Below are positions 6,715 through 32,000 of a stretch of 32,000 nt of DNA, in pieces. The stretch's first letter is position 1. The number at the start of each line of letters is the position of its first letter. The position numbers and the translations under genes are program-made. A model generated the notes under the pieces. That model saw only the letters and a program-made list of their open reading frames with translations. It was not told the origin of the DNA and did not search any database. The stretch spans positions 1 through 32,000 of the forward strand of contig NC_010482.1 in the NCBI RefSeq assembly GCF_000019605.1, in the 5' to 3' direction. This DNA is from Candidatus Korarchaeum cryptofilum OPF8. GTDB lineage: Archaea > Korarchaeota > Korarchaeia > Korarchaeales > Korarchaeaceae.

Positions 6715-6734
6715 CTGGATTAGCTGGACGTCCC

Positions 6735-6772
6735 GATTAAAATAGTTGCGTCTACAGTAAATTTTTTTAAAT
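6735..6772. promoter_or_regulatory. divergent promoter region with two TATA-like boxes (moeA leftwards, hom rightwards)
   Basis: AATTTTTTTAAATG (6759-6772) lies about 25-38 nt upstream of the hom ATG. GATTAAAATAG (6735-6745) lies about 21-31 nt upstream of the moeA ATG on the other strand. The spacing suggests short or absent leaders. Confidence 0.4.
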
Positions 6773-6796
6773 GCACGACAGCTAAGCTCTCCCAAC

Positions 6797-16392: not shown

Positions 16393-16440
16393 GCTTTTCC
16401 CCGGGGATCAGGGGTATCTTTATTTACTTAACTTTTCCCC

Positions 16441-17517: not shown

Positions 17518-18617
17518 ATAGGGGATCCTTAGGGAAAGTAGATAAATACACGCTGATAAGAATGCTGAGAGAAGGGGGATTCTCGAAGGTATTCCTGGCG
17601 AGGAGGGAAAGGGAGCTAGTAGTAGTGAAGCTCCCTAAGGATGATGAGCTATCGAGGTACCTCCTAGCCGAGGAGGCTGAGATACTGGAGGAGGTCTCAA
17701 AGCCAGTGCCTCACGAAAACATCGTCGGATTCATAGAGTGGATCCCCGAAGCCTCAGCTCTCGTCGAGGAGTACGTCCCCGGCCCGACGTTGAGGGAAGC
17801 ATTCTCAGGGAGGATTGCAACGCAGGGAGATGCCATCAGAGTTGCTCTAGGATGCCTCTCAGCATTAGAGAGGATACATTCATTGGGGATCGCTCATGGT
17901 GACATTAAGCCGGAAAACATAATACTTCCTAAGCCATTGCATCCCGTCCTAATCGATATGGGAGTCGCTAGGAGGTTCGGAAGCAAATCTTTAGCTGCTA
18001 CATTGGGATGGAGCGCCCCGGAATTCCTAAAGGGGGAAGTTTCCCCGGAGTCAGATATATATTCAGTTGGGGCACTCCTCCTCTTCATGTTAACCGGAAG
18101 GGATCCTCCTGAGGACCCTTCATCCATAAAGGTCCCAAATAACATCTCCGACAACCTCAAGTATGTCTTGGAGAGATCCCTCAATCCGGAGCCATGGGGG
18201 AGATTCGGGAGCGCTAGTGAGATGTCCCTGGCCCTCATGGGGAGGAAACTGCCCCAAGGAGAGGGGCCGAGACTCGTTATCCAAGGTAAAGTAATAAATT
18301 TGACCTCAAAGATAACGATAGGGAGGATAAAGAGGCAGGGAGGCACTGGAAATGCCGATGTCTGCCTCCAGGAGATAGGGAACAGGAGGCTCTTACCCCC
18401 AGGCCCGCCTCTCGGGTGGGTTGAGATATCTAAGGTAGGCGGGGAGTTCTGGATAAGCGATATGGGCGCACCTGGAGGAGTGTGGATTCAGGAGGGGATG
18501 AGCTGGAAGAGGGTAATGGACTATCCCCTCAAGCACGGTCAACTGATATCTATAGGGCTCAGAGTCAAGGGGAGGATGGCCCTTCCTTATGTCTTGGGTA
18601 GGTTCTATTCACGCTGA
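17514..18617 (+). CDS. Hanks-type Ser/Thr protein kinase with a divergent FHA-like C-terminal domain
   Basis: Kinase subdomains are all present: EGGFSKVF, VVVKL (Lys), HGDIKPENIIL, DMG, SAPE. The C-terminal 120 aa has FHA-like spacing (ITIGR...WVEIS...WISDMGAPGGVWIQ...HGQLISIG). The ATG overlaps the upstream stop (ATGA). Confidence 0.8.
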   Translation: MNRGSLGKVDKYTLIRMLREGGFSKVFLARRERELVVVKLPKDDELSRYLLAEEAEILEEVSKPVPHENIVGFIEWIPEASALVEEYVPGPTLREAFSGRIATQGDAIRVALGCLSALERIHSLGIAHGDIKPENIILPKPLHPVLIDMGVARRFGSKSLAATLGWSAPEFLKGEVSPESDIYSVGALLLFMLTGRDPPEDPSSIKVPNNISDNLKYVLERSLNPEPWGRFGSASEMSLALMGRKLPQGEGPRLVIQGKVINLTSKITIGRIKRQGGTGNADVCLQEIGNRRLLPPGPPLGWVEISKVGGEFWISDMGAPGGVWIQEGMSWKRVMDYPLKHGQLISIGLRVKGRMALPYVLGRFYSR

Positions 18618-18654
18618 TCTCCAAAAAGTTTTTCCGGTAATGTGGGTCGCTTGA

Positions 18655-19461
18655 GTGGTGACTTCGATGAAGAGTGAGGGATCGACGCAATCTAAAGAGC
18701 TGGAGAGCCTGAAATATGTCAAGAGAAAGATAGCTGTGATGAGCGGGAAGGGAGGAGTCGGTAAGACCACTGTCTCCGTGAACATAGCAGCTGAACTCGC
18801 TAGGAGGGGTTATTCCGTCGGCATAATGGATACGGACCTCACGGGACCTAACGTCCCTAGGGCCATCGGTCTACTGGGCTCCCAAGTATATGTCGAGGAG
18901 AACAAGCTGATCCCTGTAGAAGGTCCTTTAGGGATAAAGGCCATTTCACTGGGGTTCATGATAGAGGACGAAGATGCTGTCATATGGAGAGGACCTCTTA
19001 AGGCCAAAGCGATACAGGAATTAGTGGAAGGTACAAAATGGGGGAATTTGGATTTTCTGGTGGTAGATCTCCCGCCTGGAACAGGAGATGAACCATTGAG
19101 CGTGATGCAGCTCATCCCTCTCGATGGCATCGTTATAGTGACCACTCCTCAGAAGATCGCCCTGATGGATGTCAGGAGGGCGATAAGGATGGCTAAGGCT
19201 ATGAACATAAAGGTCCTCGGTCTAATAGAGAACATGAGCTACTTCAAATGCGGTAGTGAGAAGATCAAGATATTCGGGGAAGGTGGCGGCAGGAAGCTCG
19301 CGGAGGAGGAGGGAGTCCCCTTCCTCGGTGAGATCCCAATAGATCCGAAAGTTGTTGAGCTAACTGATGAGGGTAAGCCCATAGTGATGGAGGATCCCGA
19401 GAGCCCTGTAGCTAAGGCATTCAGCGAAATAGTTGATAGGATGCTCGCTCAGATCGGATGA
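18655..19461 (+). CDS. Mrp/NBP35/ApbC-family P-loop ATPase lacking the CxxC pair
   Basis: Deviant Walker A SGKGGVGKTT, DLPPGTGDE, and ENMSYFKCGSEKIKIFG. GTG start; the ATG at 18667 is an alternative. Confidence 0.8.
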   Translation: MVTSMKSEGSTQSKELESLKYVKRKIAVMSGKGGVGKTTVSVNIAAELARRGYSVGIMDTDLTGPNVPRAIGLLGSQVYVEENKLIPVEGPLGIKAISLGFMIEDEDAVIWRGPLKAKAIQELVEGTKWGNLDFLVVDLPPGTGDEPLSVMQLIPLDGIVIVTTPQKIALMDVRRAIRMAKAMNIKVLGLIENMSYFKCGSEKIKIFGEGGGRKLAEEEGVPFLGEIPIDPKVVELTDEGKPIVMEDPESPVAKAFSEIVDRMLAQIG

Positions 19462-19722
19462 CAGTTATTTCAGCTGGTACAGATTCATAAATTTATTTTT
19501 CATATCGTCTTAAAATGTTAAGAAAATTACATAAAGGTGAGCTGAGAAAAAAATAAACTTCCATCTTTTAGATATAAAAACATACAGTAAGTATATTAAA
19601 ATCTCAAATTTTTTTCGATTTACTGGATTTTTAGATGACTCCAATATATGAAACGGTTGCATTGGTAAGTTAAGAATTAGAGCATGTAACATTTATTTAG
19701 GTGATCCCGGAGTTATCGCTCG
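19462..19722. other. AT-rich non-coding island upstream of the PKD surface-protein gene
   Basis: I counted 46 G/C in the 180 nt from 19501 to 19680, about 26 percent, against roughly 50 percent in the flanks. There are many A/T runs and TATA-like strings and no credible ORF. Confidence 0.6.
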
Positions 19723-21264
19723 ATGAAAGCAACGAAAATGTTAGTTTCCACGGGCGTAGCATTAATTCTGCTCATGACGATAAGCGCTTCGGCAGGTACC
19801 GGATGTGAGGCAATCGCATCCTCACTACCTCCACCTAGGATAGTCAGCTTATCATATACAGTTAGGGGAACTACAGTCTACTTCACCGCCGTGGCAGCTT
19901 TCGAGAAAACCACGACAGAAGATAATATGCCAAGGGAGTGGATTTGGGATTTCGGTGATGGGCAAACTCTCAAAAAAACGGGCGGTTATAAGATAAATGA
20001 GACACAAAAGGGCGCTTCTATAATAGCTTATTATGGTATGGACGTCTCCCATACCTACAAGGATTACACTCAATATACAGTTAAGGTGAGCGTGAAGAAT
20101 ACTTGGATGAAGGAATCAAACGTTTACATTGCTACGATAACCGTCAAGAAACCAAATTACCCGCCCGTAGTTGAGCTTAAGGATGTTTATCCAAATCCCG
20201 CGCAACCGAATGAGAAGGTTACATTCGTAGCTGAGGCTTCCGATTCCGACGGTCGCGTAACTACCTTCTACTGGGATTTCGGCGATGGCAATAAGCAGCA
20301 GGGGGCTAACCTAACTAGGGTCACTCACGCTTACTCGAGAGAAGGCACTTACACCGTCACGTTGAAAGTCGCTGATGATAAGGGAGCCATCTCGAATGAG
20401 ACATCCGTCAAGGTTTACGTTAAGTCTAGGATGACTGAGGCGAAGCCCCCGAACAGAGCACCAATCATAACTTCGGTAACGTTCAGCCCGCAGGATCCGG
20501 ACCCTGGGGCTACTATATCATTCAGGGCATCCGCTTACGATCCCGATGGTGATCCGATAACATACACTTGGGATTTCGGTGATGGCACTGTGAGGAAGGG
20601 GGACGCTGAGATCAAGTATACCTACCCGAAGGAAGGTGCTTACACAGTTAAGGTGAAGGCGATCGATTCAAAAGGGCTTGAGTCCTCCTATTATACTGTC
20701 AGTGTCTCTGTGAGAGGAAATAGACCACCTCAGGCTTCCATAATATCCATAAAGACACTCGATAACGTCACATTCCTATTCCAAGGGATGGGCGTCGATC
20801 CCGATGGCAAAGTAGTGGCTTACGAGTGGAATATGGGAGATGGGAAGATATTCACGGGGGAGCTCGAGGGGAACTCCATACCCCACGATTACCTCAACTA
20901 CACATACTCAAAGAGCGGGAATTATACCGTGAGCTTCAGGGTTAAGGATGATAAGGGTGTTTGGTCGAACTGGGTGAGCAGGAAGATAACTGTCAAGATA
21001 CCGGAGATAGCTTCAGCCTCCCTATCCTGGATAGGTCTGGACAACCTATGGATGAGCATAGGGATAGGAGCATTCATTGTGATCTTCGCGAGCTATCTAG
21101 CGGTGAGGGATTCCAATAGAAACGGTTTCGTTGAGAGAGCTAATAGCAGGAAAGTCGTCGTGAGGAAGGACCTGAACAGGAGAGGACAGGGGCCGCGTGG
21201 GAAATACTACAGGGACTATAGGACTTATGTGAGGAAGGGATCGAAGAAATCTCCTTGGGACTGA
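19723..21264 (+). CDS. secreted, membrane-anchored protein with four PKD-like domains
   Basis: N-terminal signal-like segment (MLVSTGVALILLMTISASAGTGC). Four WDFGDG-type repeats: WIWDFGDGQT, FYWDFGDGNK, YTWDFGDGTV, YEWNMGDGKI. A C-terminal TM helix (IGIGAFIVIFASYLAV) and a basic tail follow. Confidence 0.85.
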   Translation: MKATKMLVSTGVALILLMTISASAGTGCEAIASSLPPPRIVSLSYTVRGTTVYFTAVAAFEKTTTEDNMPREWIWDFGDGQTLKKTGGYKINETQKGASIIAYYGMDVSHTYKDYTQYTVKVSVKNTWMKESNVYIATITVKKPNYPPVVELKDVYPNPAQPNEKVTFVAEASDSDGRVTTFYWDFGDGNKQQGANLTRVTHAYSREGTYTVTLKVADDKGAISNETSVKVYVKSRMTEAKPPNRAPIITSVTFSPQDPDPGATISFRASAYDPDGDPITYTWDFGDGTVRKGDAEIKYTYPKEGAYTVKVKAIDSKGLESSYYTVSVSVRGNRPPQASIISIKTLDNVTFLFQGMGVDPDGKVVAYEWNMGDGKIFTGELEGNSIPHDYLNYTYSKSGNYTVSFRVKDDKGVWSNWVSRKITVKIPEIASASLSWIGLDNLWMSIGIGAFIVIFASYLAVRDSNRNGFVERANSRKVVVRKDLNRRGQGPRGKYYRDYRTYVRKGSKKSPWD

Positions 21265-21265
21265 A

Positions 21266-21541
21266 TCAATCCCTTCCGGTTAAGCATTTTATTAACTTAA
21301 TAATGCTCTCCCCCTCCCCCATCTTGTATACCCTCACTCTCCCCAGCTTCACTTCCTCCAATATACCGGCCTTACTCAGGGCCTCTAAGTTCCTCTCGGC
21401 GCTCGTGTAGGAGATCCCCAACTCCCTAGATATCCTACTTATATTAGCTCCTCCTGCATTTATGATGTATTTCAGGATCCTGACCCTCGTCTTGCTCTTC
21501 ATAGCTTCGATTAGCAAGTCCTCCCAATCCAACTCGACCAC
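21266..21541 (-). CDS. small winged-helix (ArsR/TrmB-like) DNA-binding protein
   Basis: TRVRILKYI...ANISRISRELGISYTSAERNLEALSKAGILEE...GRVRVY is an HTH plus wing pattern. The start codon abuts the stop of the upstream rSAM gene. Confidence 0.7.
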   Translation of the reverse strand: MVELDWEDLLIEAMKSKTRVRILKYIINAGGANISRISRELGISYTSAERNLEALSKAGILEEVKLGRVRVYKMGEGESIIKLIKCLTGRD

Positions 21542-22606
21542 CTAAGGAATTACTTCCACCGTATTATTATAGCGGGGATAATAAAGGTCCTCGGCGGATA
21601 TTACTCCCTCTCTGATCAAAGATCTTATTTCCTCTCCATGCTCTAAGACTATCTTTATCGTCTCCTTAGTCACAGTACAGACCTCCCTGAACCCTTCCTC
21701 TCCCCATAAGCGTTCCATGTAAGCGTAGAGGCACCTACCTCCGCAGTATTTGAAGTAATCGCAGCTCTTGCAGGGCTCCCCTATACTGACTTCTCTGATC
21801 CCATTACCCAGCTCCCCGACGACCGCCCAACTAGAGTCAACAGCTATAGGGCAAGCTAAGATCTTACCGTTGGGCAGCAAGGTGAAGCTCTCGCTACCGG
21901 CTCCACAGGGAGGAGAGGGTAGATCCCCGAATAGCTCAGCCCTCATTATTCCTAAGAATGGGACTATCCCCAGAATCTTTCCCTTTCTCATCTCCCCCAA
22001 CCATAAGGAGGCCAGTTTCCTGAGTCCCGGTAGATAAGAGCGCTCCGACCAATCCCTGAAATCCCATCTCTCGGACCAGATGACGTTGAGTTGCCAGTGG
22101 ATGTGATCGAATAGTCCCAAGCTCAGGAGGTGAGTCACTTCTTCATATATATCTGTCCTCTCCCAGGCGGTCATCCTGGCTATTAAATCTCCAGAAAATC
22201 CATATTTTCTCAAATTCCTCGCTGTTTCTATTGCTCTCTTATAATTTCCCTTCCCCCTGCCCTCATCGTTCACTTCAGGCCTCCCATCCACGGAGAGGAG
22301 TATGGAGTCGAAGGACAGCCAGTAGCTCAAGGGTAAACTCTCGAATAGGGTGCCGTTCGTCTGTATTATGAACCTACCTCTCCAGTCCCTCGACTTCAAT
22401 GAATCGATCACATCCATTACTAGCTTGGGATTGAGGAGAGGCTCTCCCCCGTAGAAGGCCACATCGCAACCGGTCCTCACTACCAAATCGACTAGATCCT
22501 CTAATCTATATCCCTCCGACCAAGGTACGAGCTTAGGATCGAAGCTGCCACCGCAGTACAAGCATTTCATGTTGCATTTCCCAGTGGTGGTCACTATCAG
22601 GATCAA
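21542..22606 (-). CDS. radical SAM enzyme with C-terminal SPASM domain (peptide/protein-modifying maturase family)
   Basis: CNMKCLYC (CX3CX2C) at aa 11-18, then FYGGEPLL. The C-terminus has CGAG...ILACP and CKSCDYFKYCGGRC (Cx2Cx5Cx3C), the SPASM signature. TTG start preceded by GGTGG 7 nt upstream. Confidence 0.8.
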   Translation of the reverse strand: MILIVTTTGKCNMKCLYCGGSFDPKLVPWSEGYRLEDLVDLVVRTGCDVAFYGGEPLLNPKLVMDVIDSLKSRDWRGRFIIQTNGTLFESLPLSYWLSFDSILLSVDGRPEVNDEGRGKGNYKRAIETARNLRKYGFSGDLIARMTAWERTDIYEEVTHLLSLGLFDHIHWQLNVIWSERWDFRDWSERSYLPGLRKLASLWLGEMRKGKILGIVPFLGIMRAELFGDLPSPPCGAGSESFTLLPNGKILACPIAVDSSWAVVGELGNGIREVSIGEPCKSCDYFKYCGGRCLYAYMERLWGEEGFREVCTVTKETIKIVLEHGEEIRSLIREGVISAEDLYYPRYNNTVEVIP

Positions 22607-22682
22607 CTGATTCCACCTTCGGGGTATCGGGTTAAGTGGAATGTTTATTTATTTCATATGATCGATTCCCGTCTGATGCCAT

Positions 22683-23891
22683 ATGACCTCGTTGAAGGTT
22701 TCCCTCTCTCGTAGACCTCCCGTTGACGAGCAACCCATAGAGATAGTTGAGAGGAAAGGTATCGGCCATCCGGATACGATAGCGGATGGAATAATGGAGA
22801 GAGTTTCCCTAGAGCTGAATAGGGAGTACCTGAGGAAGTTTGGGGGCCTGCTCCATTACAATGCGGATAAATCCCTACTAGCAGCCGGAGTAACGGAGCC
22901 AGCCTTCGGGGGAGGAAGGGTAATAGAACCTATGCTGATCGTTTTCGGGGATAGGGCAACTACTTCATTCGGAGGAGAATCTATAGATCTTGAGGAGGTA
23001 GTGAAGAGAGCGGCTAAATCCTGGATAAGGGAGAACCTGAGGTTCGTGGATCCGGAGCGTCATGTGAGATATCAAGTGGAGATGAAGCAGGGAAGCGCTG
23101 AGCTGACGGATATATTCAGGAGGGGGAGCAAGATAATGGGGGCTAACGACACATCAGCAGCCGTGGGTTATGCACCACTTTCAAGGACGGAAAGGGTCGT
23201 TTTAGATGTAGAAAGGTTCCTGAATTCGAGGGAATTTAAGAGGGATTTCGAGGAGACGGGTGAGGACGTTAAGGTAATGGGGAGCAGATATGATAATAAA
23301 TTGGACCTCACGATAGCTCTAGCATTCGTCGATAGGTTCATATCAAGCGAAGATGAGTATTTCAAGAGGAAGGATGAAGTCCTGGAGAGGATAAATTCCT
23401 TCCTCAAGGAGAGGTACAGCGATGCCTTCGATTCCATAGAGGTCCACTTGAATACGCTTGACGTCAGGGGTAGAGGAGTTGGAGGGGTCTACCTGACCGT
23501 CTTGGGCACCTCGGCTGAAGGAGGAGACTCCGGTCAAGTTGGAAGGGGGAATGGAGTGAATGGAGTGATATCCTTGATGAGACCCAGGAGTTCAGAAGCT
23601 GCAGCTGGAAAGAACCCTGTGAGTCACGTGGGGAAGATATACAACGCTTATGCATATGAAATGGCTAGAGAGATAGTGAAGGAAGTGCCATCGATAAAGG
23701 AAGCTTACGTTTGGCTCCTCAGCAGGATAGGTTGGCCCATAAACGAACCGACTCTAATAGCCGCCGAAGTACATACAGAATCTAACTTCGAGGAGATAAG
23801 GAAGCAAGTGGAAGAGGTTTTACTGAGGGGGATATCCAGGATAGATCAATTCGTTGAGAAGCTCATAGATGGTGAGATACCGGTCTACTGA
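22683..23891 (+). CDS. metK: archaeal-type S-adenosylmethionine synthetase
   Basis: ERKGIGHPDTIADGI near the N-terminus, and the ~400-aa length, are characteristic of the archaeal MAT family. A TATA-like GTTTATTTATTTCAT lies about 30 nt upstream. Confidence 0.9.
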   Translation: MTSLKVSLSRRPPVDEQPIEIVERKGIGHPDTIADGIMERVSLELNREYLRKFGGLLHYNADKSLLAAGVTEPAFGGGRVIEPMLIVFGDRATTSFGGESIDLEEVVKRAAKSWIRENLRFVDPERHVRYQVEMKQGSAELTDIFRRGSKIMGANDTSAAVGYAPLSRTERVVLDVERFLNSREFKRDFEETGEDVKVMGSRYDNKLDLTIALAFVDRFISSEDEYFKRKDEVLERINSFLKERYSDAFDSIEVHLNTLDVRGRGVGGVYLTVLGTSAEGGDSGQVGRGNGVNGVISLMRPRSSEAAAGKNPVSHVGKIYNAYAYEMAREIVKEVPSIKEAYVWLLSRIGWPINEPTLIAAEVHTESNFEEIRKQVEEVLLRGISRIDQFVEKLIDGEIPVY

Positions 23892-26800
23892 CCTCCGAAC
23901 CTAAAGCGAGAAAAGTTAGATAGATGGCCCTGGCTCTCTCTTCAATTATATTTTTCGCTTTTTCCCTGAGATATTTTGTATATCTCTCCCAATTTGCACC
24001 TTTTCTCTCCTCTATCTCTCCAATGGATCTCCTAGCTTCCATAATAACATCCTTCATGGAACCACCTATCCCCCAGATCCTCCTCGACACCTCCTCTAGA
24101 GATACTGGGCTCAGGTTGAGGAAATCCTCAACTAAGGGTTTGAGCTCAAAGAACCTGCCCTCCTCCCTCAGGCCCTGAAGTATGTAGCATAGGGTCCTCT
24201 GGTTCATCGAGAATAGGTCCTTCAATAGTGAATCGAAGTCCCAGCCGACTACGATGAAGCCCTCATTCACGCACTTCTCGATGGGTGAGAGGCTCATTCC
24301 CGTGGAGTCGAAGAACTCCTTGACCACCAGCTGAGTCTCGATATTCTCCCCATCATAGAGCCCCAGGAATCCGATTGATATGGAATCAGATAACCTGACC
24401 CCGATGAAATCCAGGGAGAGCACTTTATTAGCTCTGGAGGGCCTTGGAATCATGAAACTCTTCCCTTCTAGGATGAAGGGGATCATCTGCTTAGCTAAGA
24501 TGTAATCCACAGCTCTCCTAGCGAATCTCTTCGCTAGATTCCAGTTTAGACCCCTGATCACGAACTCATAGTGGGCTTCCTCATCTATCAGCATCATTAT
24601 TATCTCGGAGAGATCATCGGGCTCGAAGAGATCGATCTCCTTAGCGACCTTGAGCCAGTCCAACTTCTCTATCAAACCGGCGGATTCAGGTTCATGGAGC
24701 ATCATGACCTTCTTCTCACCTAAGTTGGCCACTTCGTAATAGATGGAGTCCACGTGTATACCGAGGGAGAGCCTCAAGACGAGCATGAGAGTGGCCAATC
24801 CTATCCTGAGCCAAACTAAGTCCTCCTTAGGATCAAGCTCCACAGATATACCGTATGTATAATCCCTGTAAACTCCCCCAGTTTGTGTTATCACGGGGAG
24901 GGATCTGTTCTCCCTGAGCAATATCGTACTCTTCCCCGCGTTCACGGGCCTCACTCTGGAGGAACTGAGCTTCCAATAGACCCTATTTGGCACCTTGGTC
25001 CTGAGGCCGAACCCATCTATGGGTGGATCTACTACGCAAACTACCTCAGAGCCGATCCTCCCCTTGTGATAATCATCTATTATATCGGGCCTCTCCCCCC
25101 ATTCCGCCTTTATCCTCTCGTACTCCTCCAGCATGAAGGCCAGGGCATCGAAGGAGTATATGGTCCCGTAATTGAAGGGCCCCTCGATAACTCCAGTTAT
25201 CACCCTACCCTTCCTCCTGAAATCGAGGACGATGGAGTCGTTCCCATAATCTATGCAGCCGGGCTGGAACCTCTCGACTAAGTCGCAGTGACCTATATCC
25301 TCTAAGTACCTGAACTCACTGTCCTCCTTGAGGATCCTCTTGAATCCATAAGGAGGACCGAACTCATAGAAGTTGATCATCTCCCATACCCTCTTCCCCC
25401 TTTCCGTTAAGTTGCCCTGCGATATGAGTCCCAGCTCTGTGAGTAATCCGATCTCCTCCTCCCTCAGGTGATCCCTCATCTGGGGGTTTATCACCTTGAA
25501 TAAGCCCTCGAAGAGCATGGAGTACTTGTTCGATGGGTTCACAAGGGTTATCTCAAGCGGTAGTTTGAGCCATTTAGCCATGGCGTCAGCTCCTCTGGAG
25601 AGGAGCTCCCTATCCCACCTGTATAACGGGAATATCACAGTCTCGGTCCACCCGACATCCTTCCTACCCTTCCTCCCCTCCCTCTGCTTGAACTCCCTCA
25701 AGCTATCCGGGAGCCCTAGGTGGACGATCCTTATGATATTCCCTATATCTATCCCTTGGGAGAGGGTCCTGGGACTTATCAGTATCCTGAGCTCCCCAGA
25801 TCTCGCCGCATCCTCTATCCTCTCCCTCTCATCCTTGGGCACTAAGTGATGATGAGAAGCCACTTTGGTCAGGCCGAACTCGTTGACTAACCTCTTCCTC
25901 AGATTCTCAGCGCTCCTTATACTGTTCGTGAATACAACAGTAACTCCTTCATCTCTCTCATAGTTCGATATGATCTCAGCCGGATCCATGAAGGGTTGAG
26001 GGCACTCTATACCTAGAGATCTCGCGATCTCCACTAGCTTATACACTTCTCTCTCGAAGGACTTATAATCCTTCAGGGAGTTCCTGACATCCTCACCCAC
26101 ATCGCTCGAAAGTATCTCAATCTCATGAGCCTTGAGGCAATCCCAGATGCTCCTCAAGTTCTTCCCTAATACGAGGTAGACATCGTTCCTGGGCCTGAAG
26201 GGATCTCCCCTTATTATTGAGGTCTCCCTCCCATTGGTCGAAGTTAGGAATGAGGCGAGATCGTCAGGATTTCCCAGCGTTGCAGTAAGTACAGCTATCT
26301 GAGGTTTCCTCTCTGAAATAAGAGAGATTACCCTGATTATCGATAGAAGAAGAGCTATCTCCCTCGGCCCATAGAAGTCTAACTCATCCAGGACGAGTAG
26401 CTCCAGCTTCCTGAGGAAGCTCAGCAGGTATCCCTTGGAGAGCCTCTTCAGATCTACCAGAAGGAATGCGGGGTTCGTTATAACTAAGTTAGATGAGGTG
26501 ACCACTTCCCTGATGCCATGAGCCCCATGCGAGGATACGAGTAGCTCCCTCCTCCTAGCGTCCAAGATCTGCGGGTTCATGCCTAAGGCCCTCGAGTAAT
26601 TCTCCAACCTCCTGATCTGATCGTTCGCGAGGGCTAAAGTTGGATAGAGAGCTAAAGTCCTCTTCCCCTTCGCGGTATAGAAGAACCAACCTTCCGTCTT
26701 CCCGCTGCCAGTCCCAGAAATCAATATAATATTCTTACCATCTTCAAGGGAATTTAGGGCTTCCATCTGATGTAAATAAAGCTTCTTATCTGCTATCTCC

Positions 26801-26946
26801 CTACTCTTCCCCTCGCCAATATATAATTCAGGGAAGAGATCCCCGAAACTGACCTCGACGGTTTTTGGCCTTATCCCATCCTCAGAATAGGCCTCAAAAT
26901 CATAACCTAATGATCTGAGTAAATCGGAGGATGAGATCCTCGTCAA
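23863..26946 (-). CDS. large SF2 DExD helicase, MrfA/YprA-like (DUF1998-type architecture), with an additional uncharacterised C-terminal domain
   Basis: Helicase motifs: LYLHQMEAL, SGTGSGKT (I), YPTLALANDQ (Ia), LDELD (II), LTATL (III), SQGIDIG (V), QREGRKGR (VI). The downstream layout is IGHCDLVERFQPGCIDYGNDSIVLDF ... GLATLMLVLRLSLGIHVDSI ... VMMLHEPESAGLIEKL. From memory, this mirrors the beta-barrel and DUF1998 regions of YprA-like helicases. TTG start 5 nt after the hsp20 stop. Confidence 0.75.
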   Translation of the reverse strand: MTRISSSDLLRSLGYDFEAYSEDGIRPKTVEVSFGDLFPELYIGEGKSREIADKKLYLHQMEALNSLEDGKNIILISGTGSGKTEGWFFYTAKGKRTLALYPTLALANDQIRRLENYSRALGMNPQILDARRRELLVSSHGAHGIREVVTSSNLVITNPAFLLVDLKRLSKGYLLSFLRKLELLVLDELDFYGPREIALLLSIIRVISLISERKPQIAVLTATLGNPDDLASFLTSTNGRETSIIRGDPFRPRNDVYLVLGKNLRSIWDCLKAHEIEILSSDVGEDVRNSLKDYKSFEREVYKLVEIARSLGIECPQPFMDPAEIISNYERDEGVTVVFTNSIRSAENLRKRLVNEFGLTKVASHHHLVPKDERERIEDAARSGELRILISPRTLSQGIDIGNIIRIVHLGLPDSLREFKQREGRKGRKDVGWTETVIFPLYRWDRELLSRGADAMAKWLKLPLEITLVNPSNKYSMLFEGLFKVINPQMRDHLREEEIGLLTELGLISQGNLTERGKRVWEMINFYEFGPPYGFKRILKEDSEFRYLEDIGHCDLVERFQPGCIDYGNDSIVLDFRRKGRVITGVIEGPFNYGTIYSFDALAFMLEEYERIKAEWGERPDIIDDYHKGRIGSEVVCVVDPPIDGFGLRTKVPNRVYWKLSSSRVRPVNAGKSTILLRENRSLPVITQTGGVYRDYTYGISVELDPKEDLVWLRIGLATLMLVLRLSLGIHVDSIYYEVANLGEKKVMMLHEPESAGLIEKLDWLKVAKEIDLFEPDDLSEIIMMLIDEEAHYEFVIRGLNWNLAKRFARRAVDYILAKQMIPFILEGKSFMIPRPSRANKVLSLDFIGVRLSDSISIGFLGLYDGENIETQLVVKEFFDSTGMSLSPIEKCVNEGFIVVGWDFDSLLKDLFSMNQRTLCYILQGLREEGRFFELKPLVEDFLNLSPVSLEEVSRRIWGIGGSMKDVIMEARRSIGEIEERKGANWERYTKYLREKAKNIIEERARAIYLTFLALGSEVSRPVSHHL

Positions 26947-26951
26947 TTAGC

Positions 26952-27380
26952 CTACCTTTTAGGTATCCTTACCTCCAGAATCCCGTTCCTGTAAGTGGCC
27001 CTTATCCTCTCTGAGTCAGGCTCTATTGATAGTTGTATCCTCCTCAGGAGATCTCCCGCCTTTATAGTTATCTCCTTCCCCTTCAACCTGACTGAGATAT
27101 CCTCCTTACTTATACCAGGAACCTCAGCGACTATGAGGATCTCATCCTCCAGATCTATAACATCAACTAACTGCTCCTCTAACTCCAAACCCCTCCCCCC
27201 CTCAGATGAAGTATCGGGCTCGGGGGAGATCTCGACCCCCTCTCCCTCCTCAGCGTTCCATGATATATCGCCGTTGATGAAGCTAGATAGATCCTCATCC
27301 ATCTTCCTCAGCAGCTCCATCACGTCCCTTATGAAGCGATCGAAGGGGTCATCATAAGGGGTCTTCCTCTTATCTCCCAA
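26952..27380 (-). CDS. small heat-shock protein (Hsp20/alpha-crystallin family), atypical
   Basis: DPFDRFIRDVMELLRKMD N-terminal motif. The alpha-crystallin core is VDVIDLEDEILIVAEVPGISKEDISVRLKGKEITIKA ... ATYRNGILEVRIPK. TTG start preceded by GGGGGG; an internal ATG at codon 21 is an alternative. Confidence 0.75.
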   Translation of the reverse strand: MGDKRKTPYDDPFDRFIRDVMELLRKMDEDLSSFINGDISWNAEEGEGVEISPEPDTSSEGGRGLELEEQLVDVIDLEDEILIVAEVPGISKEDISVRLKGKEITIKAGDLLRRIQLSIEPDSERIRATYRNGILEVRIPKR

Positions 27381-27414
27381 CTAACCCCCCAAGCCTATCG
27401 CCCGTAACCCATAT

Positions 27415-30123
27415 TTAATCGCTTACCATCACCTCCTCTAACATCTCAATATTCGAAATACCATTCACCTTACTGACGAGTATGGATCTGGACGCTATAT
27501 CCCTGAACCTTGGGGAGTGCGTCACCACTATTATCTGAGGTATCTGGAGCGATGAGAGGGCCTCGAGCAGGGACTCTATCCTCTCATCATCCAAATGTAT
27601 GGTTGGCTCATCTAGGATGAAGCACTCTATCTTAGTTGAAACGAGGTATCTAGCTATAGCTAGTCTCAGAGCGAGCGCTAAGGAGATCCTCTCCCCACCG
27701 CTCAAGATGTCGAACGAGTAAGCTTTCCCCCCTCTCCTCAGGATGGGAGTGAAGTTCTCATCAAGCTCTATGGAATCGTAATCGAACCCGAATGAGCTGA
27801 AGATCTCATTGAGCTCCCTCTCTATTATTGGCTTAGCTCTCTCCCTCAGGGAAGCTTGTATACCCCTATCCCTACTGAATATTTCCCTTATCTTCAATAC
27901 CTTCAGTCTGAAATTCTCATATTTCTCTTTCCTCTCCCTGAGCTTCCTCAACTTCTCAGATTTAGTTTCTAACTCACTGATCTTCTTCTTAAGCTCTCCC
28001 ATGATCCCTTCAAGCTCTCCCCTAGTTTTAATTATCTCTCTCATCCTCTCCTCCGCTTCATTCAACTCGCTCCTCGCTTCTGATAGGGCAACTTCATCGA
28101 AGCCGAGAGATGCTATCATTTCAGAGAGTTCTCTGACCTTCTCACTATCCAAAGATATTTCCTCTGAAAGCTCATTTAAAATACTTGAAATCCTTTCTCT
28201 CTCCCTCAGAAGTCCCTTAAGCCTCTCAAACTCTATAAAAGCTTTTTTTGATCTCTGATATTCTTCCTCAATGTTCACGACATTCAGCTCCTTCGTTAAT
28301 GAAGCTATCTCTCCCTCGAGGGAGCTTATCTCCTGCCTCATCTTATCTAAGTCCACTCCAATGAGTAGCGACCTCAACCCCTCAGCCTTCTCCTTCAGCT
28401 TCTCAACTCTCTCGATATCGGAAATCAATTTCCTGTATTCCAACTCCAATTCATCCAGGTCCCTCAAATGATCCCCTAACTCAGCGATTTTCTCTGATAA
28501 ATCCCTTACATCTTCTTCTATCTTCCTCAAAGAATCATTAATGCTGCTAAGCTCCCTCAGATTTTCCCTCAGCTTCTTCGATGCATCATCTACCCTCCCG
28601 ATCCTCTCCACAGTCAGTTTTCTCTCCTCATTCAGAGAAGCCAGTCTCTCCTCTATCTCAGGAATCCTCGCCTCCATCTCATTTAAACTCCTCTGGAGGT
28701 TTCCCCTGAGCTCCTCTATTACTTCCATCGTGAGCTTTGAGCCGCATAACGGGCACCTCTCCGGATTCGTGCTCAGCTCTCCCAAGTATACTGAGTAACT
28801 GTTGATCCTCTCCCTCAACGCGGCGATTTCATTATTCAAATTTTTCATATTTTGATCGATCTCCTCTAAATGCTTTTTAAGATTCTCGGAGAACTGTGAG
28901 CAGAATTGAAGAGCATCCTCCGGATCCTCAGGAACCTCCTCGGCAATCTCCCTCAGTGAATTGAGCTCCAAGCTCGATAAAACCCTTATTTCATCGATTC
29001 TCCTCAAAAGATCACTTTCCTTCTCCTTCAAACCTGCAAGCTTCATATCCATCTTAGTGAGCTCCTGTTTCTTGCTCCTCTTCTCTTCTATTTTCTCCTT
29101 AATCCTCACGAGGATCTCTTTCCTCCCTTCTATATCCGAGATCTCCTTCTCTAAAGCCCTGAGCTCATCTAGCCTCTCGTTGGCTGTTTCAATATTTCTC
29201 CTCAGATCCGAAAGCTTCACTGCTAAATCCCTCAGCCTAGAAATCTTATCGAACTTTGATGCGATCTTCTCTATCTCCGGAAGCTTCGATAAACTTTCAT
29301 CGATTCTAATAAGTTCGCTTTCAAGTTCCCTCCTCTTTCTAATATTCTGCTCGATTTTCCTCTCTATCTCGGTGAGCTTAGACTTCAGCTCGATGAACTT
29401 CCTCCTCTTTTCCTCGATCTCATCAACTAACTTTCTAAGCTCCTCTATCTTCGATTGAAGGATATATTTTTGAGAATCTAGTTCGGAGAGCTTCCCCTTG
29501 AGCTCCTCTATCTTCCTCTCCACCTCCAGCCTCTCCCTATCCACATCCCCCATAGCGGCTATCTCCCTATCCATCGCCCTTATCTCTGAATCCAGCCTGT
29601 CTATGACCCCCCTGAGCTCCTCCCATAATCTCTCAAGCATATCTATGCCAAGGAGCCTGGCGATTATCTCCTTCCTCTTCGAAGGCTGGCTCTCCAATAG
29701 CTCCTGTATCTCACCCTGCCTCACGTAGATCCCCTGGAGGAATACATCCCTGCTGAATCCCAAGATTGCCTCTATCTGGGATGATACCTTGCTCTGGTCC
29801 CTCTGTATGAGTTTTTTACCCCCTTCTATGATCTCATGAAGCTCTGCGGATACTCCCCCATCCCTCCCCCTCTCTCTAGTCACTATATAGCTCCTCCCAT
29901 CGACCTCGAACTCGAGCGCTACCCTCATATAGGGGGCTCCGATCCTTATCAGTTCATCCTGCTGCCTGCTGGCTCTGTGATAGAGAGCATAAGCTATTGC
30001 CTCAAGTATAGTCGTTTTCCCAGCTCCGTTGTTCCCTATTATAGCATTTATCCCATCGGCGAAAGTTATATCAGTTTTTTGATGGGATCCGAAGTTTTCA
30101 AGCGATATTCTTTTTATCCTCAA
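27415..30123 (-). CDS. rad50: DNA double-strand break repair ATPase Rad50
   Basis: Walker A GNNGAGKTT. Very long E/K/L-rich coiled coil with a central zinc hook CPLC. Signature SGGERISLALALRLA and Walker B CFILDEPT. Length 902 aa. The start overlaps the mre11 stop by 4 nt. Confidence 0.95.
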   Translation of the reverse strand: MRIKRISLENFGSHQKTDITFADGINAIIGNNGAGKTTILEAIAYALYHRASRQQDELIRIGAPYMRVALEFEVDGRSYIVTRERGRDGGVSAELHEIIEGGKKLIQRDQSKVSSQIEAILGFSRDVFLQGIYVRQGEIQELLESQPSKRKEIIARLLGIDMLERLWEELRGVIDRLDSEIRAMDREIAAMGDVDRERLEVERKIEELKGKLSELDSQKYILQSKIEELRKLVDEIEEKRRKFIELKSKLTEIERKIEQNIRKRRELESELIRIDESLSKLPEIEKIASKFDKISRLRDLAVKLSDLRRNIETANERLDELRALEKEISDIEGRKEILVRIKEKIEEKRSKKQELTKMDMKLAGLKEKESDLLRRIDEIRVLSSLELNSLREIAEEVPEDPEDALQFCSQFSENLKKHLEEIDQNMKNLNNEIAALRERINSYSVYLGELSTNPERCPLCGSKLTMEVIEELRGNLQRSLNEMEARIPEIEERLASLNEERKLTVERIGRVDDASKKLRENLRELSSINDSLRKIEEDVRDLSEKIAELGDHLRDLDELELEYRKLISDIERVEKLKEKAEGLRSLLIGVDLDKMRQEISSLEGEIASLTKELNVVNIEEEYQRSKKAFIEFERLKGLLRERERISSILNELSEEISLDSEKVRELSEMIASLGFDEVALSEARSELNEAEERMREIIKTRGELEGIMGELKKKISELETKSEKLRKLRERKEKYENFRLKVLKIREIFSRDRGIQASLRERAKPIIERELNEIFSSFGFDYDSIELDENFTPILRRGGKAYSFDILSGGERISLALALRLAIARYLVSTKIECFILDEPTIHLDDERIESLLEALSSLQIPQIIVVTHSPRFRDIASRSILVSKVNGISNIEMLEEVMVSD

Positions 30124-31298
30124 GGCTCCTCCACCATCCTCATGACCTCATTCAGGAAATCCTCTCCCCTCTTCCCCTCCCTGTACCATATGTCGAATAT
30201 CCTAATAGCGAGGGATTTGATATCCTCATCTATCTTGAGGGAGCCTATCAATTGAGATATTGTGTCCTCTAGCCCCAGCAACGGGGCCTCATCCGATACC
30301 TCTTCCCTCTCCTCAAACCTCTCCTTGACGGCTATGTGGAGGGCATCGCTAGAGAGGGATCTCTTGATCTCCCCAGTTGAGAACCCGGGCTTCAAGGATC
30401 CCTTCACCTGGATTCTCCCGCATATAACAGGCCTCTCCTTCCCCTTAATCTCATTCCTTATCCTCTCTATTAGGGAGTAGAGATCCCTCGTGTTCCTTAT
30501 GATCTCGGAGAAAGTTATGAAGGGCCTCGTCTCGAGCTTTATCTCCCTAACATCAACGCCATCCCTCTCTATATCCACGGAGAGTATGTACTTGCTTCCA
30601 TCCGAAGTGAAGGCCTCCCTCAGCTCAACGATCTCAGTGGATCCGGGGTAGGCGAACACTCTATTCCCACTCCTCCTCACGACCTTATTGTGATAGTGCC
30701 CCATAGCGACATAGTTGAAGCTAGTGCTCGCTATATGGGAGAAATCGAGCTCCGGATAAAACGTCTTGATCATCCCCTTAACTCCCTGATGGATCATCAG
30801 GACTGAGGGGCAATTGCACAAACTCTTGCATTTTCCCTCCAAATTGCTTATCATAGCCGGGACATCTTTACCCAGGCTCTTGTAGGGTAGGCCAGCCACA
30901 ACGAGGTCACCTATCCTCTCAACCTTCGCATTGAGTCTCATGAACAGCTTCCCATAACCGAGCCTATTGAAGAGAGTCTCCATGTTCGCGATAGGGGAAG
31001 TTATCTGCTTTCTCACGACATCTGGCCCCAGCTCGTGGTTCCCTTCTATTATCGCTATCGGTATCCCCCTCTCAGCCAGTTTCATGAGGGATTCGAACGC
31101 CCTAACGAATGCCCTGGGATGGGGCCTGTAGCTATCGAATAGATCCCCAGTATATATGAGTAGATCAGGCTTCTCCGATATAGCGATATCTATAGCCCTA
31201 CTGAAGGATGAGTAGAAGTCCTCCTCCCTCTCAGCTAGATTGAATTGAGCCTTCCCCAAGTGACTGTCCGATAAATGAACTAGCCTCATCTCAATCAC
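30120..31298 (-). CDS. mre11: DNA double-strand break repair nuclease Mre11
   Basis: Phosphoesterase motifs HLSDSHLG, GDLFD, GNHE, HQG and GHYH in canonical order. Overlaps herA by 8 nt. Confidence 0.95.
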   Translation of the reverse strand: MIEMRLVHLSDSHLGKAQFNLAEREEDFYSSFSRAIDIAISEKPDLLIYTGDLFDSYRPHPRAFVRAFESLMKLAERGIPIAIIEGNHELGPDVVRKQITSPIANMETLFNRLGYGKLFMRLNAKVERIGDLVVAGLPYKSLGKDVPAMISNLEGKCKSLCNCPSVLMIHQGVKGMIKTFYPELDFSHIASTSFNYVAMGHYHNKVVRRSGNRVFAYPGSTEIVELREAFTSDGSKYILSVDIERDGVDVREIKLETRPFITFSEIIRNTRDLYSLIERIRNEIKGKERPVICGRIQVKGSLKPGFSTGEIKRSLSSDALHIAVKERFEEREEVSDEAPLLGLEDTISQLIGSLKIDEDIKSLAIRIFDIWYREGKRGEDFLNEVMRMVEEP

Positions 31299-32000
31299 CT
31301 ATGGCTGAGTAATAATCGTCCCTGAAGTCCTTCCTCTCAATTCCCCTCTTCCATAGCTCCCTCGCTTTCAGGCTCTCCCCCCTCCTCTTGGCTTTGGATA
31401 ATCTGACCTTTATGAGAGCTGGTATCTTGAGCATAGGACCGACGACTACCGCTTCCCCTATATCCAAGGACGGGAGGTACTTCACCATATCCTCGCTGAG
31501 GAATTCCGTAGCCCTCCTTATGTATGCCTGGTCCTCAGGTTCTATCACCCTCAATATTATCTTATTGACCATCTGCGAGAGTATGTCCGTGTTTATGCCC
31601 TTAGGCCTCTGACTGACTAAGCAGAGACCAATCCCGAATTTCCTACCTTCTCTAGCTATTTTCGAGGCGGCATAATTCGTGTAAGTGTCCATCATGGAGG
31701 GCACCAGTATATGCGCTTCTTCTATCACTGAGAGCACGGGAATAGGCATCCAAACATCTGACCCCATTCTCCTCTTTTTAGCCCTATCTAGTAGAGTTAG
31801 GAGGGTCTTACCGACGACTATATCCGTTAACTCCGTGTCTAATTGACCCAAATCGACTACGACAAGCTTTCCATAGTTCAAGTGATCGACTATCTCACCG
31901 GCCCGTGAGACTAAAACCCTGGAATACCTCTCCCTCACATGCTCCAGCCTAGCTAAGAGGCTCAATATGCTCTCCCTATCCCTATACTCGTACCTCAGTA
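31291..32000 (-). CDS. herA: HerA-type hexameric DNA helicase/translocase, C-terminal part; N-terminus outside window
   Basis: The reading frame stays open to nt 32000, so the TTG at 31965 is not the real start. Walker B/sensor region VIEEAH...VSQRP...N and the position directly upstream of mre11 support the call. Confidence 0.85.
   Translation of the reverse strand, partial: LRYEYRDRESILSLLARLEHVRERYSRVLVSRAGEIVDHLNYGKLVVVDLGQLDTELTDIVVGKTLLTLLDRAKKRRMGSDVWMPIPVLSVIEEAHILVPSMMDTYTNYAASKIAREGRKFGIGLCLVSQRPKGINTDILSQMVNKIILRVIEPEDQAYIRRATEFLSEDMVKYLPSLDIGEAVVVGPMLKIPALIKVRLSKAKRRGESLKARELWKRGIERKDFRDDYYSAIGD

Follow-up and report, generated by a model that had tools for sequence, protein, structure and literature searches.

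The window analysed here, a 32,000-nucleotide stretch from the hot-spring archaeon Candidatus Korarchaeum cryptofilum OPF8, ends with a series of closely packed genes on the minus strand that encode HerA, Mre11, Rad50, a small protein with an alpha-crystallin domain (ACD protein) and a large SF2 helicase (Table 1). Gene order, strand and junctions proved to be as given in the initial annotation when the ORFs were rechecked. herA and mre11 overlap by 8 nt, given a GTG start for mre11, and mre11 and rad50 overlap by 4 nt, while spacers of 34 nt (27381-27414) and 5 nt separate rad50 from the ACD gene and the ACD gene from the helicase gene. The Pfam search proposed at the same time placed HSP20, DEAD and Helicase_C domains on the expected ORFs. 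Mre11 carries phosphoesterase motifs, and Rad50 has the Walker A motif, a CPLC zinc hook (residues ~459-462), the signature motif and Walker B. The array ends at the helicase gene, since the 3' end of this gene overlaps a convergent AdoMet synthetase gene by 29 nt.

Table 1. Features of the array and its 3' flank, with positions in the window
Feature	Positions	Strand	Evidence or remark
herA, C-terminal ~235 codons	31291..32000	-	Pfam HerA_C/DUF87; NCBIfam HerA_Thermprot, E 8e-62; gene cut by window end
mre11, 392 aa	30120..31298	-	Pfam Metallophos; NCBIfam Mre11_Sulfo, E 1.5e-38
rad50, 902 aa	27415..30123	-	Pfam SMC_N and Rad50_zn_hook; NCBIfam Rad50 models, E 1e-99 to 1e-108
TTAAATA, candidate archaeal TATA box	27412..27418	-	Overlaps rad50 stop codon; 31 nt upstream of ACD start
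ACD gene, 142 aa	26952..27380	-	Pfam HSP20 / ArsA_HSP20
SF2 helicase gene, 1027 aa	23863..26946	-	Pfam DEAD, residues 59-228; Helicase_C, residues 330-429
Helicase residues 1-450, N-terminal strands and RecA1/RecA2 SF2 core	25597..26946	-	Profile against PDB
Helicase residues 451-754, helical/WH-like, beta-barrel and beta-rich accessory region	24685..25596	-	AF2 pLDDT 86
Helicase residues 755-1027 and stop, C-terminal module	23863..24684	-	AF2 pLDDT 85
AdoMet synthetase gene	22683..23891	+	Pfam AdoMet_Synthase on orthologs in L001, L002 and L091

The initial annotation had placed the helicase gene where nurA is expected. Its observation that the ORFs downstream of rad50 include none resembling NurA was borne out for the window, but nurA is found at the other end of the array, a side that the initial annotation could not see because the window stops within herA. 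In a contig that is 99.1% identical to positions 13895-32000 of the window with zero indels (L011), nurA lies directly upstream of herA and overlaps its start. The product matches Pfam NurA over the full length of the profile (2-254/254, E 5e-22), and the full-length herA of this contig has the HAS-barrel, DUF87 and HerA_C domains of a HAS-barrel protein with an FtsK-like ATPase. The same arrangement, with a nurA confirmed by Pfam, occurs in L001, L002 and L013-L015, which are all of the syntenic relatives with enough flank. A nurA in just this position was the first of the findings that the initial annotation had listed as telling against its proposal. By comparison with these genomes, nurA should lie ~0.9 kb beyond position 32000, outside the window. 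Because nurA adjoins herA in L011 and in the syntenic relatives, NurA has not been replaced, and the array, judged from sequence, reads nurA-herA-mre11-rad50-ACD-helicase. The four genes of the HerA-NurA/Mre11-Rad50 operon of Sulfolobus and Pyrococcus all occur here as well, close together on a single strand. The order differs, however, from the herA-mre11-rad50-nurA order of those organisms, and in the Korarchaeum-like clade, unlike in Sulfolobus and Pyrococcus, two further genes follow rad50.

Attachment of these two genes to the rad50 operon, as initially proposed, holds inside the Korarchaeum-like clade but not beyond it. The order rad50-ACD-helicase occurs in groups L001-5, L011-15 and L018 and in L091, and the ACD-helicase pair is found in L092. 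The linkage is thus kept in 4-5 Korarchaeum-like sublineages of one broadly syntenic clade, across which identity falls from 99% to 53-54% for the helicase and to as low as 31% for Rad50. The ACD gene and the helicase gene are separated by 5-9 nt in every relative, and the spacers between rad50 and the ACD gene range from 15 to 35 nt. The suggested comparison of helicase neighbourhoods across Archaea gave a different picture elsewhere, with linkage to rad50 in 0 of the 35 other lineages examined. The extension behind rad50 is, on this distribution, specific to the Korarchaeum-like clade. Synteny among the linked genomes extends over the entire ~23 kb surveyed (>20 kb); the genes may thus have stayed adjacent through common descent and not because selection kept them linked.

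Sequence signals around the rad50 stop codon bear on how the pair is expressed. The element at the rad50 stop (GATTAAATA) occurs only twice in the window, counting both strands, and is kept in three sublineages amid an otherwise diverged spacer, with TTAAATA 31-35 nt before the ACD start; an analogous TTAATAA is present at the rad50 stop of L091. This TATA-like box could drive the ACD-helicase pair independently. No run of five or more T residues, and hence no oligo-T terminator, was found on the operon strand within positions 23400-32000. Since there is no such terminator after rad50, at least partial read-through transcription of the pair is probable, and with rad50-ACD spacers this short, read-through would be hard to avoid. 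In three sublineages, a G-rich, Shine-Dalgarno-like run lies before the ACD start. Co-expression of the pair with rad50 is plausible.

The assignment of the ACD protein to the small heat-shock protein (sHSP) family is supported by Pfam HSP20 (E 8e-9, 35.9 bits against a cut-off of 20.8), by ArsA_HSP20 (25.5 bits, cut-off 22.5) and by a match to the alpha-crystallin domain of Sulfolobus solfataricus Hsp20.1 (PDB 4rzk, E 7e-12); the NCBIfam Hsp20 model scores 69 bits, under its cut-off of 140. The protein consists of an sHSP-type N-terminal DPF motif, which aligns with the WDPF motif of sHSPs, an acidic linker and a minimal alpha-crystallin domain, and it shares the C-terminal ATYRNGILEVRIPK strand with canonical sHSPs. 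Unlike canonical sHSPs, however, it is missing ~20 residues in the region of the beta5-beta6 loop (a 20-column deletion in alignment A2 against the canonical sHSPs P0138-P0140), and it has no C-terminal IXI tail, ending with ...EVRIPKR directly after the last strand of the domain where canonical relatives continue with ...VRIDIH. The sHSPs of archaea, bacteria and plants dimerise through the loop that contains beta6. A conserved N-terminal helix and the acidic linker are specific to the clade and likewise set the protein apart. Full-length homologs were found only in the Korarchaeum-like clade, where the gene is under strong purifying selection (dN/dS 0.05-0.12). These features characterise the ACD protein as a clade-specific sHSP derivative that has evidently lost both of the elements from which dimers and oligomers are built. 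Because both elements are lost, we infer that the protein is not a general chaperone but serves the helicase as a dedicated partner or adaptor (or as a holdase).

The helicase has intact SF2 motifs (GSGKTE, YPTLALANDQ, DELD, TAT and QREGRKGR). When the profile of its family (A1) was compared with PDB, the best match was YprA/MrfA (E 4e-30), followed by Lhr (8e-16); the match to NCBIfam TIGR03817 (E 1e-20) is far below the cut-off of that model. Sequence profile and structure agree by a wide margin that MrfA/YprA (SftH, Hrq1; PDB 6znp/6znq) is the closest characterised relative. The predicted structure matches MrfA in Foldseek with an E value of 5e-29 and a target TM score of 0.63-0.67 over ~850 columns, an extent which indicates that the similarity reaches well beyond the RecA core, and the modelled accessory region may correspond to the WH-OB-CON-MZB 'canopy' of MrfA, on which it appears to superpose. 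At the sequence level, the profile gave no match to MrfA in PDB past residue ~436, and residues 451-1027 had no Pfam match even at E<=10, DUF1998/MZB included. A four-cysteine Zn2+-binding DUF1998 motif is considered to define the MrfA/YprA family (PMC7797055). In the helicase family described here that site is not conserved, as only C637 is invariant and C554 and C564 occur in 31/38 and 25/38 sequences. The helicase further differs from MrfA/YprA in having no MrfB-type neighbour, a gene for a DEDDh exonuclease of this type lying beside the helicase gene in 0 of 92 loci, and in having ~280 extra C-terminal residues that form a module private to the family. Censuses that demand PF09369 (PMC8301817) would leave the family out. 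By analogy with MrfA/SftH, the protein is most likely a monomeric 3'-to-5' ssDNA translocase/helicase in DNA repair, but as the zinc site is missing, transfer of the MrfA mechanism is uncertain.

The initial annotation had also raised the possibility of a nuclease domain in the helicase. The AF2 model of the C-terminal module consists of a helical bundle, a hairpin, a beta-beta-beta-alpha-beta-alpha-beta-alpha unit and terminal helices, and the topology of that unit (residues ~842-943) resembles that of RNase H-fold nucleases. The top Foldseek matches are RNase HI, EndoV, UvrC-C and PIWI, all weak (E 0.04-0.2, TM ~0.3), and no nuclease or exonuclease family was found in the module with Pfam. 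Unlike in RNase H-fold nucleases, conservation is lacking at the positions that correspond to the catalytic triad, which are acidic in 27/36 and 19/36 lineages without co-variation. The resemblance in fold is weak, a nuclease domain is doubtful, and the module is probably RNase-H-like and non-catalytic. It is confined to the C-termini of ~1000-1050-aa proteins or their fragments, with 68 representatives among 1.84 billion sequences.

From the sequence comparisons, thermophilic TACK archaea have a small family of ~1030-aa SF2 helicases, whose local ortholog is the protein encoded here. The 35 unlinked lineages correspond to clusters at 80% identity, and in 34 of these the sequence available upstream extended for at least 600 bp. 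In these lineages the helicase gene stands alone, with no neighbour common to more than about six of them and no ACD gene within 10 kb in any (0/35). The genes that recur beside it encode RNA ligase RtcB, an SFM1-like methyltransferase and radical-SAM proteins; RtcB is the most frequent immediate downstream neighbour (4 lineages), which hints at RNA metabolism. DNA-repair genes are adjacent to the helicase gene in none of the 35. The mre11-rad50 genes lie within 10 kb of it in 2/35 lineages, never adjacent, against a rough chance expectation of ~0.35 derived from the flank surveyed, so that any enrichment is marginal.

The reading we favour, with a probability of about 0.6, is that an ordinary resection module has acquired an appended ACD-helicase pair which is transcribed partly by read-through, with a repair-type helicase and the ACD protein as its partner. 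On this reading, the array of this Korarchaeum-like archaeon comprises six genes on one strand, of which the window contains the 3' two-thirds; nurA-herA-mre11-rad50 constitutes an ordinary, complete archaeal DNA-end-resection module, to which this clade alone has added, behind rad50, the closely coupled ACD and helicase genes. In the helicase, the intact ATPase core and a putative MrfA/YprA-like canopy, devoid of the zinc cluster, would be joined to the private C-terminal module, and the ACD protein would serve the helicase as a dedicated partner, adaptor or holdase. Read-through from the repair operon would provide part of the expression of the pair, and the TATA-like box may add independent control. 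Physical or functional coupling of the pair to Mre11-Rad50/HerA-NurA is plausible. That the two proteins are true accessory subunits of HerA-NurA/Mre11-Rad50, adding a 3'-to-5' helicase activity to resection, seems unlikely. In bacteria and eukaryotes, RecQ/Sgs1-type helicases fill the role of the end-resection helicase. If true, such an accessory role of the two proteins would give a DNA-break-repair function to an uncharacterised, zinc-site-less helicase family of thermophilic TACK archaea and would present a case of a small heat-shock protein turned dedicated adaptor.

Alternatively, the ACD and helicase genes could be a two-gene unit of their own, with a promoter at the rad50 stop and no shared job with the repair genes, which was placed there by a lineage-specific rearrangement and has been kept by synteny. 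Such neighbours might be, for example, a stress-inducible chaperone-like protein and a general nucleic-acid, possibly RNA, helicase. This explanation is possible, if somewhat doubtful. It would account for the conservation of the TATA-like element amid a diverged spacer, with its counterpart in L091, for synteny that spans the whole region and for the company of orthologs elsewhere, which is RtcB, methyltransferase and radical-SAM genes and never repair genes. sHSP genes, moreover, are commonly under their own stress-responsive promoters. It fits less well with the short spacers and the missing T-run after rad50, or with the Shine-Dalgarno-like run before the ACD start, which is what internal initiation on a polycistronic mRNA would use; the loss of the sHSP oligomerisation elements argues against a generic heat-shock role, and the nearest characterised relative of the helicase acts in DNA repair. 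The proposal from which the analysis set out, namely that the cluster has no NurA partner and that the helicase, possibly with a nuclease domain, and a chaperone-like protein substitute for it in end resection, is barely credible now that nurA has been located next to herA in L011 and the syntenic relatives. NurA is itself RNase H-like, as the C-terminal module weakly is, and no NurA-like ORF lies 3' of rad50; yet the module and NurA show no similarity to each other (hhalign probability 0.3%), and its triad-like acidic positions neither persist nor co-vary.

A role of the pair as an anti-virus defence module is very improbable, even though defence helicases are numerous in the YprA family (bioRxiv 10.1101/2025.09.15.676423) and many YprA-like helicases are part of DISARM, Dpd, Druantia or ARMADA. 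The PADLOC models BrxHI, SngC, DpdJ, DruE and Cas3 do match the helicase, but every one of these matches is limited to the generic RecA core. The neighbours are housekeeping genes, with no methyltransferase, PLD or other nuclease partner nearby, and the helicase, unlike those of the four systems named, does not belong to an operon of system-specific partners. All 35 unlinked clusters have a single copy of the helicase gene in a housekeeping context, and identity declines smoothly from 99% to 41%, as is usual for a core gene passed on vertically and not for a mobile defence island.

The addition of an ACD-helicase pair, comprising a gene for an HSP20-like protein with an alpha-crystallin domain (ACD) and a gene for an SF2 helicase, to a canonical repair module is specific to one archaeal lineage. 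The pair closes a minus-strand array of five ORFs that lie back to back in 23863-32000, and the layout, coordinates and junctions of the initial annotation are confirmed; Pfam and NCBIfam matches bear out the gene identities. The array stops at the helicase gene, because a convergent AdoMet synthetase gene overlaps its 3' end.

Features of the minus-strand repair array, in order of transcription
Feature	Position	Strand	Identification	Junction
herA	ends 31291, open at window end	-	Pfam, NCBIfam	
mre11	30120-31298	-	Pfam, NCBIfam	8-nt overlap with herA if GTG start used
rad50 with zinc hook	27415-30123	-	Pfam, NCBIfam	4-nt overlap with mre11; followed by 34-nt spacer
ACD protein gene, 142 aa	26952-27380	-	HSP20/alpha-crystallin match (Pfam, NCBIfam)	followed by 5-nt spacer
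SF2 helicase gene, 1027 aa	23863-26946	-	Pfam DEAD (residues 59-228), Helicase_C (330-429)	

As had been noticed from the sequence alone, the window contains no NurA-like ORF downstream of rad50. A JGI metagenome contig (L011) that matches window positions 13895-32000 at 99.1% identity without indels extends past the window end, and on this contig herA is complete (HAS-barrel, DUF87, HerA_C) and the gene upstream of it, whose end overlaps the herA start, matches Pfam NurA across the whole profile (E 5e-22). Two syntenic relatives, L001 and L002 (helicases 90% and 63% identical, respectively), are annotated with the order nurA-herA-mre11-rad50-ACD-helicase followed by the convergent AdoMet synthetase gene, and the order from nurA to the helicase gene recurs in L013-L015. 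From L011 and these relatives, nurA is therefore placed past position 32000, at a distance of about 0.9 kb. The order of the genes differs from that of the Sulfolobus/Pyrococcus cluster in that nurA here precedes herA. Since nurA lies directly upstream of herA in all of these loci, the proposal that NurA is missing from the cluster does not hold, nor does the proposal that the helicase and the chaperone-like protein replace it; a NurA-like domain at the C-terminus of the helicase was likewise rejected (hhalign probability 0.3%). The DNA-end-resection module is thus canonical and complete, and an end-resection operon without NurA is not what this genome possesses. The starts of nurA and a divergent gene for an ADP-forming CoA-ligase-like protein are 15-60 nt apart (L001 2907-2923; L002 2818-2879), and in L002 a TTAAAATTTA box 24 nt ahead of the nurA ATG points to an operon transcript with a short leader or none.

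The reach of the linkage was surveyed by using the six proteins of the array as queries (tblastn, phmmer) against 92 loci that encode helicase relatives. The closest named matches of the helicase are in Korarchaeota MAGs. The order rad50-ACD-helicase is present in every locus with sufficient flank and a helicase at least 60% identical, which amounts to three clusters at 80% identity, as well as in the divergent locus L091 (helicase 54%, ACD protein 57% and Rad50 31% identical); in L092, which ends at a contig edge, an ACD fragment directly precedes the helicase gene. The ACD and helicase genes are separated by 5 nt, or by 8-9 nt in L091 and L092, and rad50 is separated from the ACD gene by 15-35 nt. 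In the other 35 lineage clusters, where helicase identity is 41-53%, the helicase gene stands alone. These unlinked lineages include other Korarchaeota, Nezhaarchaeales, Bathyarchaeota, Caldarchaeales/Aigarchaeota, Nitrososphaeria-type lineages and Thermofilaceae. An ACD ORF upstream of the helicase gene is absent from 34 of the 35, those with at least 600 bp of upstream sequence, and rad50 is absent upstream in the 27 with at least 3.5 kb. A mre11-rad50 locus does occur 2.6-6.6 kb from the helicase gene in two unlinked lineages (L043; L053/58/68), with other genes between, a marginal excess over the approximately 0.35 expected by chance in a rough estimate from the flank surveyed. In L043 this is a nurA-herA-mre11-rad50 array (18670-23108) located 5.7 kb downstream on the same strand beyond about seven unrelated genes. 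In the other lineage, which is A/T-rich judging by its proteins, genes for a short (800-aa) SbcC-like Rad50 and an SbcD/Mre11-like protein (L053 3810-7383, L058 2523-6105, L068 972-3374) lie 2.6-6.6 kb upstream, with opposite-strand genes between. Gene order is common to the linked genomes over the whole of the roughly 23 kb examined (CoA ligase, PspA, AdoMet synthetase, radical SAM, HTH, PKD protein, ParA, kinase and FHA), which leaves the conserved adjacency as a weak argument for selection acting on the linkage itself. The suggestion that the ACD and helicase genes have been attached to the rad50 operon accordingly stands for the linked clade, where the order is kept, with the qualifications that this clade is syntenic anyway and that the helicase gene is solitary elsewhere.

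Full-length homologs of the ACD protein (53-99% identity) were found only in the Korarchaeum-like clade, and the protein scores below the NCBIfam Hsp20 cut-off. Aligned with canonical small heat shock proteins (sHSPs), it retains the N-terminal DPF motif and the ACD strands, including ATYRNGILEVRIPK, but lacks about 20 residues across the beta5-beta6 loop and the entire C-terminal IXI extension, the elements on which sHSPs rely to assemble into dimers and larger oligomers. A conserved N-terminal PYDDPFDxFIxDxxDLLxKMDEDLSxF segment takes their place, together with an acidic linker. The gene is constrained and functional, as dN/dS against its orthologs is 0.05-0.12. Loss of the oligomerization elements in a protein that is nevertheless strongly conserved suggests repurposing as a specific partner protein, and its putative role is that of an adaptor or holdase for a specific partner, not that of a general chaperone. 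The protein offers a clean natural example of an sHSP stripped of its oligomerization elements. Nothing relevant to an sHSP-helicase or a Korarchaeum rad50-helicase association was found in the literature searched.

Motifs I, Ia, II (DELD), III and VI of the helicase are intact and invariant among 38 aligned homologs. The nearest solved structure by sequence profile is that of the B. subtilis repair helicase YprA/MrfA (E 4e-30), followed by Lhr (8e-16). A confident AlphaFold model built from 38 homologs (pLDDT 86, pTM 0.80) also has MrfA as its best structural match (E 5e-29, TM 0.63-0.67 normalized to MrfA), and since the approximately 850 aligned columns exceed the RecA core, the accessory domains are probably MrfA-like as well. 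The accessory region of the model appears to resemble the MrfA 'canopy', which consists of WH-OB-CON-MZB (PMC7797055). The helicase differs from MrfA/YprA in that the family-defining four-cysteine zinc motif is absent and only a single Cys is invariant. Pfam DUF1998 was not detected even at E<=10, and the last ~600 residues have no Pfam or NCBIfam match. A census that required PF09369 (PMC8301817) would have left out this family, and a recent YprA survey (bioRxiv 10.1101/2025.09.15.676423) makes no mention of Rad50, Mre11 or Hsp20 contexts. No published work on the family was found in the literature searched, and PADLOC defence models match only the generic helicase core. The family is a divergent, uncharacterized branch of the YprA-like helicases.

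The C-terminal module of the helicase (residues 755-1027; model pLDDT 85) has the core topology beta-beta-beta-alpha-beta-alpha-beta-alpha. Its best Foldseek matches, namely RNase HI, EndoV, the C-terminal half of UvrC and PIWI, without exception have the RNase H fold, and all are weak (E 0.04-0.2, TM ~0.3). These matches leave something of the earlier suggestion of a nuclease domain, but no Pfam family was detected in the module of any member, and an active DDE/RNase H-type nuclease is unlikely because the positions that would form the triad, D846, D903 and E934, are acidic in 27, 19 and 35 of 36 lineages, respectively, with no co-variation. When 1.84 billion representative proteins were searched exhaustively by HMM, superseding a profile search that had returned three fragments only, the module was found in 68 of them. 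Apart from P0170, P0187 and P0206, which are atypical in length or match position, these are proteins of ~1000-1125 aa with the module at the C-terminus, or fragments. The helicase family is therefore small and has a single architecture.

Throughout 23400-32000 the operon strand is free of stretches of five or more T, by which transcription in archaea usually terminates, and in three sublineages the ACD start follows a G-rich SD-like run; both features favour read-through from rad50. Pointing the other way, the heptamer TTAAATA (27412-27418, minus strand), one of two copies on both strands of the window, lies across the rad50 stop codon in three sublineages, 31-35 nt before the ACD start (31 nt in the window). 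It is conserved there as GATTAAATA within a spacer that is otherwise unalignable, and L091 has TTAATAA at the matching site. The heptamer is a credible candidate for an archaeal TATA box and a possible internal promoter for the ACD-helicase pair, and part of its conservation may instead stem from the conserved Rad50 C-terminus (VSD-stop). Scans for sigma-70 promoters and hairpin terminators, with models unsuited to archaea, gave results at or below chance.

The reading that we favour, with a probability of roughly 0.6, is that a vertically inherited, MrfA-like, zinc-less TACK helicase moved behind rad50 in the Korarchaeum lineage and there gained a dedicated, degenerate partner derived from an sHSP, with expression of the pair coupled at least in part to that of the resection genes. 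Alternatively, the ACD and helicase genes could constitute an independent two-gene unit that has no role in break repair. The TATA-like box at the rad50 stop, the synteny throughout the clade and the neighbours of orthologs elsewhere, which are not repair genes and are partly RNA-related, would all fit such a unit, and the indications of read-through from rad50 point the other way; we consider it the main rival, though less likely than the first reading. The helicase may cooperate with Mre11-Rad50/HerA-NurA, a mechanism suggested by genomic context. RecQ-type helicases for resection are said to be missing from archaea (PMC3326311), a gap that such cooperation, if true, would fill. The Korarchaeum arrangement is the sole genomic-context clue to the role of the helicase family. 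The locus combines an extended form of the resection operon with a divergent YprA-like branch and a minimal ACD protein.

No conserved partner gene of the helicase was found across the 35 unlinked lineages. Genes for RtcB, radical SAM, PAC2, SFM1-like methyltransferase and pyruvate kinase each occur nearby in 3-4 of the 35 and those for ABC-transporter ATPases in six, and a radical-SAM gene directly follows the helicase gene in four. The RNA ligase gene rtcB adjoins the helicase ortholog in four non-Korarchaeal lineages (L008-L010 13177-14634; L056 10188-11645; L057 6305-9205; L051 8352-9809), in three of them directly after it at 38-75 nt on the same strand and in L051 at 1.4 kb on the opposite strand. 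This neighbourhood hints at RNA or 3'-phosphate ends as possible substrates of the family. A gene for an SFM1-like SPOUT methyltransferase lies 16-21 nt downstream of the ortholog in L041 (11035-11679), L042 (7060-7704) and L043 (13151-13801), and in L079/L080 a member of the same ORF family lies on the opposite strand at a distance of 1.5 kb, giving three lineage clusters altogether.

Elsewhere in the window, genes for an FHA-domain protein, a Ser/Thr protein kinase and a ParA/MinD-like ATPase stand in a row (16441-19461, plus strand), the first two overlapping by 4 nt. L001 and L002 have this trio in synteny, and its ParA and kinase genes are also present in L091 and L092. The three genes, ~5 kb away from the repair operon, may form a phospho-signalling module. 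The gene at 19723-21264 (plus strand), which is kept in the syntenic relatives, encodes a 513-aa protein with an N-terminal signal-like segment, several PKD repeats and, at its C-terminal end, a hydrophobic segment that leads into a strongly basic tail. Two tandem overlapping paralogs of MoeA-type molybdopterin molybdenumtransferase are encoded at 3525-6924 (minus strand), the downstream one of which carries a C-terminal fusion to a periplasmic-binding-protein-like (PBP_like) domain.
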